Source: an uncultured Clostridia bacterium (GTDB taxonomy: Bacteria > Bacillota > Clostridia > Christensenellales > DTU072). From it: DNA of 64,000 nt. The translations under genes and the position numbers were made by a program. Shown in pieces: positions 22,901-23,921 of this stretch. Within the stretch, counting starts at the first letter, position 1; each line of letters opens with the position of its first letter. The notes below the pieces were generated by a model. The model saw only the letters and a list, made by a program, of their open reading frames with translations, searched no databases and was not told the origin of the DNA. The DNA is taken from positions 5,395-69,394 of the forward strand of contig CALVTP010000001.1 in the NCBI GenBank assembly GCA_944362765.1, read 5' to 3'.

Positions 22901-23921
22901 CACCGTTTCCAACGCGAGAACCGCCGTCGATAAGTATATAAAACTCCGGACGCGCGCCATTCAGATGGGAGTGGCATGCATGACCTCTCTCGACACCGCA
23001 AATGCGCTCGCCGACATTCTGGCTTCCCGTTTCACCGAAAGCAATACCGAGCTTGTCGACCTCAACAAAATGCGCAAAAAGCGGTTGAAAATCGCCTTCT
23101 CGAAGATGCAGTCGCTCGGAAACGACGGTGTCTATATCGAAAACTTCGACAATTCCGTCAACTGCCCGGAAAGTCTGGCGATACTGTTTGCCGACCGCAA
23201 TTTCGGCATCGGCGCCAACGGTCTTGCGGTCATCGGAAAATCGGACGTCGCCGACGCCAGAATGGATATCTATAATAAAGACGGTTCCGACGGCAAGACT
23301 TCGGGAACGACGCTGGTCTGTACGGGAAAATTCCTCTACGACCGCGGATTGGTCAAAAAGACCGATATCACCATAGAAACGCAGTCCGGGATAAGGGAAC
23401 TAACACTCTATCTTTCAGACGGCTTGGTGTCCGGCGTCACCTGCGACATGGGCGTCCCCGCACTGAAACCCGAGGACATCCCGTCAAGCCTCGAGGGCGA
23501 TTCCGTCATCGGAAGAGAGGTGGAGCTGCGCGGCAAAACCTACAAAGTCACCGCGCTTTCGCTCGGCAATCCTCACCTTGTCATCTTTGTCGACAGAGTC
23601 GACGACGTCGATATTCTGAAAGAGGGTCCGCTGTTTGAGTATGCCCCGTTCTTCGGCGAGAGGACGAATGTCGAATTTGTGCGGGTAGTCAACTCTTCGA
23701 CCCTCAAAATGCGCGTCTGGGAGAGGGGTAACGGCGAAACGCCGGCTTCGGGTTCGGGCGCCTGCGCGGCGGTAGTGGCGGCGACGCTGAACGGCTTTAT
23801 CCCGCGCGGCAGCGACATTACCGTAAAGACCCGCGGCGGCGACGTCACCGTGCATTACGATAAGACGGTGTCGCTGACTTCCTCGGCGCACCTCGTTTTC
23901 GAAGGCACCATCAGAATCTGA
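19908..23921 (+). CDS. carB: carbamoyl-phosphate synthase large subunit fused in frame to a C-terminal DapF-like (diaminopimelate-epimerase-fold) domain
   Basis: Residues 1 to ~1059 form a complete CarB: [20 protein letters not shown], the second-half copy [20 protein letters not shown], and an MGS-like tail. From nt 23085 come [11 protein letters not shown] ... [13 protein letters not shown] ... SLGNPHLV ... [17 protein letters not shown], the DapF pattern with both catalytic Cys positions occupied by Ser. The start overlaps the carA stop (TGATG). Confidence 0.9.
   Translation: [1337 protein letters not shown]

Follow-up and report, generated by a model that had tools for sequence, protein, structure and literature searches.

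A carbamoyl-phosphate synthase large subunit carrying a C-terminal diaminopimelate epimerase fold with serine at both catalytic cysteine positions, encoded in an arginine operon of uncultured Clostridia

The gene described here lies in a 64,000-nucleotide stretch of DNA from an uncultured Clostridia bacterium (contig CALVTP010000001.1; the window, hereafter). It encodes the large subunit of carbamoyl-phosphate synthase (CPS), CarB, extended in frame by a complete diaminopimelate (DAP) epimerase (DapF) fold in which both catalytic cysteines are serine. We lean toward the interpretation that the product is an arginine-pathway CPS large subunit with a C-terminal, epimerase-dead, ligand-binding "pseudo-DapF" that regulates CPS. 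The module probably has no catalytic activity and instead senses a ligand or has a regulatory role, a type of domain that is not known for CPS; we infer both the binding of a ligand and the regulatory effect on CPS from the sequences.

The fusion was found to be a single unbroken open reading frame at 19908..23921 (+) encoding 1337 amino acids (aa), as stated in a sequence-only reading of this DNA made earlier. That reading had also placed a complete CarB, including the MGS-like allosteric tail, ahead of the additional module. Residues 1 to 1041 aligned over the whole length of the CarB equivalog profiles (NF003671, 1389 bits against a cut-off of 599; TIGR01369, 1365 bits against a cut-off of 1027), and the Pfam matches comprised two pre-ATP-grasp plus ATP-grasp halves, CPSase_L_D1/D2/D3, and MGS. 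This part is a bona fide CarB. Residues 1062 to 1335 covered positions 1 to 268 of the 270 in the DapF profile TIGR00652 (214 to 219 bits against a cut-off of 114.65, E ~1e-64) and also matched PF01678 (164 bits, E 1.7e-48). The best sequence match to a solved structure was Bacillus anthracis DapF (2otn; phmmer against the PDB, E 6.7e-61, 38% identity). The profiles for PhzF and proline-racemase-like proteins (PF02567 and PF05544) remained below their gathering scores (18.7 bits for PF02567 against a cut-off of 27), as did the score for the bifunctional DapF/glutamate racemase profile NF038284 (84.8 bits against a cut-off of 350), and in Foldseek the structural matches to PhzF and proline-racemase-like relatives were far weaker than those to DapF.

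An AlphaFold2 model computed for the MGS domain plus the tail had a mean predicted local distance difference test score (pLDDT) of 90.1 and a predicted template-modeling score (pTM) of 0.70. The modeled module matched DapF structures in Foldseek at an E value of 1e-33, with the best template-modeling (TM) score, 0.91 at a root mean square deviation of 2.0 Å, obtained for ligand-bound 9mro. The tail is a genuine full-length DapF fold fused in frame to CarB; it falls in DapF and not in another family, and the DapF motifs quoted in the sequence-only reading were all found. The same reading had seen no obvious linker, and on this point it was mistaken, because the conserved CarB C-terminal tail serves as one. 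This linker, approximately aa 1040 to 1061, was the least confident stretch of the model (pLDDT 63 to 69). At the junction, the position of the former DapF start is a leucine, encoded by TTG in the window and by CTG or CTC in the orthologues. There is thus no conserved internal start, and separate translation of the module from such a start was rejected.

The fusion with paired serines recurs in independent assemblies. The 90%-identity cluster of the protein has 32 distinct near-identical members, and the 15 that are listed, from many contigs, are all 1337 aa long and all Ser/Ser. A scan of one genome per species found the fusion as a single open frame of 1337 to 1343 aa in four metagenome-assembled genomes, one of Candidatus Stercoripulliclostridium merdigallinarum and the others of uncultured Clostridia. 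The tails in these are 74 to 86% identical, and a fifth independent contig carries the same Ser/Ser tail. Serine occupies both catalytic positions in six of six assemblies (the window and these five), while TCG and TCC vary synonymously. The frame is open across the window and loci L003 to L006, and no orthologue has a stop or frameshift at the junction. Ratios of nonsynonymous to synonymous substitution (dN/dS; Nei-Gojobori, NG86) were 0.04 to 0.16 for the DapF module, 0.03 to 0.13 for the MGS domain, and 0.03 to 0.07 for whole CarB, at a dS of ~1 to 1.6, which is near saturation. By this measure, purifying selection constrains the module to the same degree as the neighboring allosteric domain. 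The earlier suggestion of a pseudo-epimerase was borne out to this extent, namely, that a genuine DapF fold without its thiol pair is kept by selection. The serine codons do not represent strain-specific decay; Cys/Cys forms were found only in relatives at ≤53% identity.

The catalytic columns were read from alignments to solved DapFs (2otn, 9mro, and 3ejx) and to Haemophilus influenzae DapF, and the pocket contacts were taken from the Corynebacterium glutamicum DapF-DAP complex and its mutants and from the description of the H. influenzae enzyme (PMC5296763, PMC8225329). Ser-1132 and Ser-1281 stand at the positions of Cys73 and Cys217, a pair conserved at 100% in 181 canonical DapFs; both TCG codons lie exactly where they had been reported. 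The changes invariant in the Ser/Ser clade are C73S, N75T, G76S/T, C217S, and Y13G, together with D43N, M72T, and R78I/V. The carboxylate clamp at the reacting center is incomplete in that G74, G218, and S219 are kept and Asn75, which is 99% conserved in Cys/Cys DapFs, is Thr. The activity of C. glutamicum DapF is abolished by C83A, C221A, and N85A, N85 being the equivalent of N75 (PMC5296763). PddB, a DapF homologue, is nearly inactive with single Cys-to-Ser changes, and the same is cited there for Mycobacterium tuberculosis DapF (PMC8225329). Judged by its residues, the module is without the chemistry for two-base (thiol-pair) epimerization, and from these published mutants, LL-DAP to meso-DAP epimerase activity is predicted to be absent. 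Since both the Cys pair and Asn75 are replaced, the module should not be filed as a diaminopimelate epimerase.

The residues that recognize the opposite end of DAP are those of a DapF. The distal (L-center) recognition subsite, consisting of N64, N157, N190, E208, and R209, is invariant in all six Ser/Ser sequences, and N11, H159, G74, G218, and S/T219 are likewise kept without exception in this clade. In relatives with Ala at the first catalytic position (Ala/Cys forms), the recognition residues are ≥98% conserved, and Cys217, Asn75, and the whole clamp are kept as well. Of 64 columns that are ≥90% conserved in the 181 canonical DapFs, the Ala/Cys clade retains 61 and the Ser/Ser clade 52. 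The substrate of PddB has no distal carboxylate, and in that enzyme N64, N157, N190, and R209 are replaced (PMC8225329); the retention of these four residues in the module argues that a DAP-like head group is still recognized. A link to ornithine, which had been raised on the grounds of its role in CPS activation, received no specific support: Thr1042 is still present in CarB, and the conserved residues of the module are those that hold the distal alpha-amino-acid group of DAP.

An uncontrolled comparison had yielded 18 columns of apparent new constraint in the module, and most of these disappeared when a depth-matched sister clade was used (mean pairwise identity, 0.59 versus 0.62). About five were left, namely, R1259, V1261, T1305, K1307, and S1089, which are fixed only in the clade without the first Cys; V1261 and S1089 show differential conservation similar to that of R1259. 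As a separate observation, Asn11, which contacts the amino group at the reacting center, is Asp ("GDDY" versus "GNDY") in 24 of 56 Ala/Cys sequences, e.g., P0004, P0017, P0027, and P0028. The substitution introduces a negative charge at the former catalytic subsite and may indicate a shift toward a cationic ligand end.

The allosteric domain preceding the module has also changed. In Escherichia coli numbering, the window has Glu for T974, Ala for T977, and no K993, and it keeps S948, K954, and T1042. In the Ser/Ser fusions generally, K954 and T1042 are kept, T974 is Asp or Glu, T977 is Ala, and K993 is lost. The Cys/Cys fusions keep K954, T974, T977, K993, and T1042, and the Ala/Cys fusions keep T974, T977, T1042, and mostly K993, with K954 variable. 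The T977/K993 site is therefore eroded only in the Ser/Ser clade, and the ornithine contact Thr1042 is retained in all fusions examined. T974 and K954 have roles in the IMP (inosine monophosphate) complex; the four residues T974, T977, K993, and K954 are taken as a mark of E. coli-type regulation and not of CarB membership. In E. coli CarB, roles have been described for Thr977 and Lys993 (inhibition by and binding of uridine monophosphate [UMP]), Thr1042 (the ornithine carboxylate), and Ser948 (PMC6245113). Classical nucleotide control therefore seems to have disappeared in precisely the clade whose DapF module is the most remodeled.

The Ser/Ser proteins belong to a wider family, and this pattern goes beyond the sequence-only reading: fusions of this kind occur widely, the Ala/Cys state predominates among the relatives, and forms without the first Cys are those located in arginine operons. 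Searches with the tail returned many proteins that either have MGS plus DAP_epimerase domains or are named "carbamoyl-phosphate synthase large subunit" in their source, and an exhaustive search for MGS plus tail added further fusions, including a full-length representative of 1349 aa (P0123, Cys/Cys). Altogether 275 sequences were collected, 260 of which have a near-complete DapF domain, and at least 58 of the 260 are demonstrably fused to the CarB C terminus. The catalytic dyad is Ala/Cys in 35 of these 58 fusions, Cys/Cys in 13, Ser/Ser in 6, Gly/Cys in 2, and Ser/Cys and Ala/Tyr in 1 each. Clostridia commonly have CarB::DapF fusions. In a distance-based (neighbor-joining) tree, all forms without the first Cys made up one 68-member clade adjoining a Cys/Cys clade of mixed fused and stand-alone DapFs. 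Bootstrapping with the pocket columns masked recovered Ser/Ser at 100%, Ser/Ser plus the Ala/Cys type at 76%, and the Ala/Cys type alone at 2%, a pattern indicating that the Ser/Ser lineage arose inside the Ala/Cys radiation. The Ala codon in relatives is GCG or GCA, so that Ser-1132 (TCG) is one step from Ala. It had been argued that TCG is two substitutions from TGY; this is true of the codons themselves, and the likely route at 1132 is nevertheless Cys to Ala (GCG) to Ser (TCG). The codon path to Ser-1281 is TGC to TCC to TCG.

Two other apparent architectures were rejected. A separate "MGS+DapF" gene (446 to 449 or 462 to 467 aa, starting "MKSTGEVLG") was found to be a gene call restarting at the next conserved Met after a lesion in carB, as an otherwise normal carB is broken in L012, L015, L016, and L011, whether by an in-frame stop, by a homopolymer indel, or by a 23-nt deletion. 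Both of the stand-alone Ala/Cys modules that were checked (P0024 and P0083) were fusions broken by an in-frame stop or a scaffold N gap. The carB lesions are independent of one another: an in-frame TAA in L012 at ~7020 ("VPVFI*EKL"), a T-homopolymer indel in L015 at ~8950 ("VPVF-SFEK"), a 23-nt deletion removing "LGPEMKST" in L016 at ~8913, and an in-frame stop in L013 at ~4960 ("SRYN*QNTE"). Sequencing errors caused by low coverage or homopolymers are the probable source, with real pseudogenes being possible.

The genomic context separates the same groups. The operon of the window reads argG-argH-argC-argJ-argB-argF-carA-carB and ends with the fusion gene, with the carA stop overlapping the carB start, and the order is the same in L004 to L006, the other Ser/Ser loci. 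At the Ala/Cys loci L012, L013, and L017, argF-carA is upstream of the fusion, with more arg genes (argC/J/B/D) where the contig reaches. The Cys/Cys loci L011 and L015, which are clusters of purine and glutamine-amidotransferase genes, read purA, gltD-like, purF-like, carA, carB::dapF, guaA, and hisH/F, and L016 reads folC, thrC, carA, and carB::dapF. Loss of the first Cys and location in an arg operon go together at seven of seven loci, and none of the three Cys/Cys fusions is in an arg operon.

Two further observations concern these loci. argD (acetylornithine aminotransferase) is absent between argB and argF in the Ser/Ser-clade operons (window 16982-18756; L004 to L006), and it is present in operons of the Ala/Cys type (L012 1234-2394; L017 3956-5116). 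The Cys/Cys fusions (L015 5307-10341, L011 4175-9389, and L016 5095-10247) have the catalytic pair intact; they are presumably bifunctional CPS/DapF proteins and are apparently uncharacterized.

In the interpretation we favor, the module would still bind a DAP-like amino acid, that is, an L-alpha-amino-acid head group on a spacer of three to four carbons. The simplest assumption is that LL- or meso-DAP is the ligand; arginine, citrulline, ornithine, and lysine, which are of similar length and have the same head group, are sterically plausible, and the hydroxyl-rich remodeled pocket could have moved specificity toward one of these. DapF closes its domains on substrate binding (PMC5296763), and ligand binding to the module would cause the same open-to-closed clamshell movement. 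Through the short tether to the MGS-like domain, this movement would modulate carbamoyl-phosphate synthesis, to which DapF-type dimerization may contribute, and the module would thereby replace the nucleotide control lost from the CarB of this clade. Three evolutionary steps are proposed: a Cys/Cys CarB::DapF fusion in a general CPS, loss of the first Cys (to Ala) in an arg-operon copy, and a change to Ser/Ser with a hydroxyl-rich remodeled catalytic pocket in a Stercoripulliclostridium-like lineage. A broader proposal is put forward only tentatively, as a possibility. It holds that the dead DapF fold is a new type of allosteric sensor domain for CPS, a racemase-fold clamshell receptor which couples the arginine-specific supply of carbamoyl phosphate to the level of an amino acid of the diamino or dibasic type (DAP, lysine, arginine, or citrulline), replaces the lost nucleotide site, and defines a sizeable and so far unrecognized family of arg-operon CPSs in gut Clostridia.

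Several points weigh against the interpretation of the module as a ligand-binding regulator. With a pTM of 0.70 and a low-confidence linker, the model does not define an interface between the module and the allosteric domain. The conservation of the pocket could also reflect residual or altered catalysis or, in part, fold stability. The association with arg operons comes from seven loci only, four of which are close relatives, and both the ligand and the direction of regulation are hypotheses. Finally, the module might still have to supply meso-DAP if the genomes are without a separate canonical dapF.

It is rather unlikely, in our estimate, that the module is a scaffold or oligomerization unit without a small-molecule ligand. 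Such a unit would dimerize CPS through the DapF interface or would bind another protein, for example, ornithine carbamoyltransferase, so that carbamoyl phosphate is channeled, in a manner resembling the binding of RppH by DapF. argF is immediately upstream of carA-carB, the clade-fixed residues R1259, T1305, and K1307 are outside the known ligand contacts, and Phe-1331 keeps an aromatic residue at the position equivalent to Tyr268. The latter is presumably a DapF dimerization residue, as judged from the title of entry 4ik0 ("Y268A mutant"). A precedent is E. coli DapF, which moonlights as a protein activator of RppH (PMC6061791; PDB 6d13). A scaffold would, however, have no need for invariant buried N64, N157, N190, E208, and R209 in a clade of ~59% mean identity, and the coordinated, clade-invariant remodeling of the pocket (Y13G, N75T, and G76S/T) points to a pocket in use.

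Alternatively, the module could be an enzyme with altered chemistry on a DAP-like substrate, the Ala/Cys forms carrying out a one-base elimination, dehydration, or hydrolysis and the Ser/Ser forms a hydroxyl-assisted reaction. Trans-3-hydroxy-L-proline dehydratases, members of the proline-racemase-like superfamily in which one catalytic Cys is replaced, were among the fold matches (6r76 and 4k7g), and the strong conservation of the substrate pocket and the Cys217, Asn75, and full clamp of the Ala/Cys forms are in keeping with an enzyme. We nevertheless consider this distinctly improbable. In the lineage of the window, both acid/base residues and Asn75 are changed, the Cys-to-Ser forms of PddB and M. 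tuberculosis DapF have only trace activity (PMC8225329), and neither arginine nor carbamoyl-phosphate metabolism is known to include a step that would require it. Moreover, the Ser/Ser lineage lies within the Ala/Cys clade and shares its operon context, which suggests a function needing neither cysteine.

That the Ser/Ser module is a residual housekeeping epimerase and the sole source of meso-DAP in the organism is very improbable. In its favor, the module scores above the DapF equivalog cut-off, single Cys-to-Ser mutants retain trace activity (PMC8225329), and neither the 64-kb window nor the fetched loci contain a second, canonical dapF, the searched DNA being a few percent of a genome. A 10-kb extension beyond the window start contained murB, whiA, and a DNA polymerase III alpha-type gene and no dapF. 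Yet a double Cys-to-Ser change combined with N75T should fall far below the trace levels of the single mutants, and canonical stand-alone Cys/Cys DapFs are common in related Clostridia. An artifact (a missed stop or frameshift) or a neutral leftover of a once-fused dapF is effectively refuted: carB lesions do occur in several related contigs, but these are homopolymer indels, stops, and N gaps in low-coverage assemblies that surfaced only through the selection of truncated gene calls, and the frame is open in the window, L003 to L006, and the cluster members, at low dN/dS and near-saturated dS.

The features of the operon and of the fusion gene are collected in the table.

Table. Positions in the window of the arginine operon, the domains of the CarB fusion, and the pocket residues of its DapF-fold module
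Feature	Position	Strand	Basis
argG	12212-13435	+	NCBIfam equivalog above cut-off
argH	13475-14845	+	NCBIfam equivalog above cut-off
argC	14838-15749	+	NCBIfam equivalog above cut-off
argJ	15746-16969	+	NCBIfam equivalog above cut-off
argB	16982-17833	+	NCBIfam equivalog above cut-off
argF	17842-18756	+	NCBIfam equivalog above cut-off
carA, CPS small (glutaminase) subunit	18817..19908	+	NF009475, 373 bits against cut-off 221; start at 18850 in the public gene call
CarB proper (aa 1-1041): two ATP-grasp halves, oligomerization domain, MGS-like allosteric domain	19908..23030	+	NCBIfam, Pfam, alignment with E. coli CarB 769-1061
MGS-like allosteric domain with eroded nucleotide-effector site	22695..23030	+	Alignment to E. 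coli CarB
Linker, conserved CarB C-terminal tail (aa 1042-1061)	23031..23090	+	Lowest model pLDDT, junction codons, orthologue alignment
DapF-fold module, both lobes (aa 1062-1337 plus stop codon)	23091..23921	+	TIGR00652, phmmer, Foldseek
Gly-1074 in place of the GNDY/F aromatic, invariant in Ser/Ser clade	23127..23129	+	Alignments
Asn-1123 (Asn64), distal-carboxylate contact, retained	23274..23276	+	Alignments; roles from PMC5296763, PMC8225329
Ser-1132 (TCG) at DapF Cys73 position	23301..23303	+	Alignments; Ser (TCG or TCC) in 6/6 Ser/Ser assemblies; Ala (GCG or GCA) in Ala/Cys-type relatives
Thr-1134 and Thr-1135 in place of Asn75 and Gly76 (CGNG carboxylate clamp)	23307..23312	+	Alignments
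Asn-1221 (Asn157) and His-1223 (His159), GNPH motif, retained	23568..23576	+	Alignments
Asn-1254 (Asn190), recognition-site residue, retained	23667..23669	+	Alignments
Arg-1259, 100% fixed in clade without first Cys, variable in Cys/Cys sisters	23682..23684	+	Depth-matched differential conservation
Glu-1272 and Arg-1273 (Glu208, Arg209), amino-group and distal-carboxylate (salt bridge) contacts, retained	23721..23726	+	Alignments
Ser-1281 (TCG) at DapF Cys217 position	23748..23750	+	Alignments; TCC in L002, TCG in other Ser/Ser assemblies
T1305	23820..23822	+	Differential conservation similar to R1259
K1307	23826..23828	+	Differential conservation similar to R1259
Hairpin (9 bp, G+C rich) with a short U run behind it, 52 nt past stop codon	23973..23994	+	RNA fold -20.5 kcal/mol, z -3.5
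Promoter-like site for next gene	24046-24075	+	Precedes the cluster at 24090-27551

The hairpin downstream of the fusion gene likely marks the end of the operon, as judged from its predicted fold; a stricter terminator scan did not flag it. Directly 3' of the operon, at 24090-27551 (+), is a cluster of the oxaloacetate-decarboxylase/methylmalonyl-CoA-decarboxylase type with genes for a carboxyltransferase alpha subunit, a small gamma subunit, a biotin carrier with an Ala/Pro-rich linker, and a beta subunit. Elsewhere in the window, a 677-aa product (39798-41831, +) has all four phosphoglucomutase/phosphomannomutase domains and C-terminal hexapeptide (LbH) repeats; it is a sugar-phosphate mutase with an acyltransferase-like domain attached, a combination that recalls GlmM plus a GlmU-type protein. 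The single 4270-aa open reading frame at 41993-54805 (+) is by far the largest in the window, and a BspA-type leucine-rich-repeat protein (PF13306, E 4.6e-80) at 7517-9160 (+) is 547 aa long here versus 475 aa in L019.

CPS is a textbook allosteric enzyme, and to our knowledge its known regulatory inputs (ornithine, UMP, and IMP in bacteria and N-acetylglutamate in CPS1) all act via the C-terminal MGS-like domain. If the interpretation of the module as a regulator is true, a conserved, epimerase-derived C-terminal domain would be a new regulatory solution for CPS, and the family would be a clean natural case of a stepwise change from enzyme to pseudo-enzyme in which the Cys/Cys, Ala/Cys, and Ser/Ser states are all extant. 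A literature search covering the fusion, dead DapFs, and C-terminal extensions of CPS turned up no publication describing CarB fused to DapF or a DapF that is dead in nature. Public records name the fragments "diaminopimelate epimerase" or "carbamoyl-phosphate synthase large subunit." Given these names and the score above the DapF equivalog cut-off, metabolic reconstructions of gut Clostridia may wrongly credit the DapF step.

Among known systems, the module is closest to DapF itself (TIGR00652/PF01678; 2otn, 9mro, 1bwz, 4ijz, and 5m47), with which it shares the full-length two-lobe fold, the GNDx, GNPH, and ERG.GET motifs, the distal recognition residues, and N11, H159, G74, G218, and S219. 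It differs in being Ser/Ser, in having Thr for Asn75, Thr or Ser for Gly76, and Gly for the GNDY/F aromatic, and in being fused to CarB in an arginine operon rather than in a lysine or cell wall context. The C73S and C217S mutants of H. influenzae DapF (2q9h and 2q9j), both of which were among the fold matches, have the same substitutions at the same positions with the fold preserved. Such laboratory Cys-to-Ser mutants, including those of PddB and M. tuberculosis DapF, are single and have near-zero activity, whereas the substitutions here occur naturally and together, have become fixed in a lineage, and are maintained by purifying selection. The trans-3-hydroxy-L-proline dehydratases (6r76 and 4k7g) have a related fold in which replacement of one Cys changes the chemistry, and they are a model for the Ala/Cys relatives; they are of a different family (13 to 16% identity) and still require one Cys, whereas the window protein has none.

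A regulatory role has a precedent in the E. coli DapF-RppH complex (6d13 and 6vck), where DapF is a noncatalytic protein activator of the RNA pyrophosphohydrolase RppH (PMC6061791). In that complex, a DapF fold affects a second enzyme through direct contact and not through epimerization; however, that DapF is separate and catalytically intact and its partner is unrelated to CPS, whereas the module described here is fused and disabled. E. coli CarB (1ce8 and 1bxr; PMC6245113) has the same MGS-like domain that directly precedes the module, with T1042 and S948 kept, and differs in that T977, K993, and T974 are lost in the Ser/Ser clade and an extra domain of 278 aa follows the allosteric domain. 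The Cys/Cys CarB::DapF fusions (P0123, L011, L015, and L016) have the same architecture and the same junction. Unlike the window protein, they have both the catalytic pair and the CarB nucleotide site intact, and they adjoin purF, guaA, hisHF, or thrC, outside arg operons.

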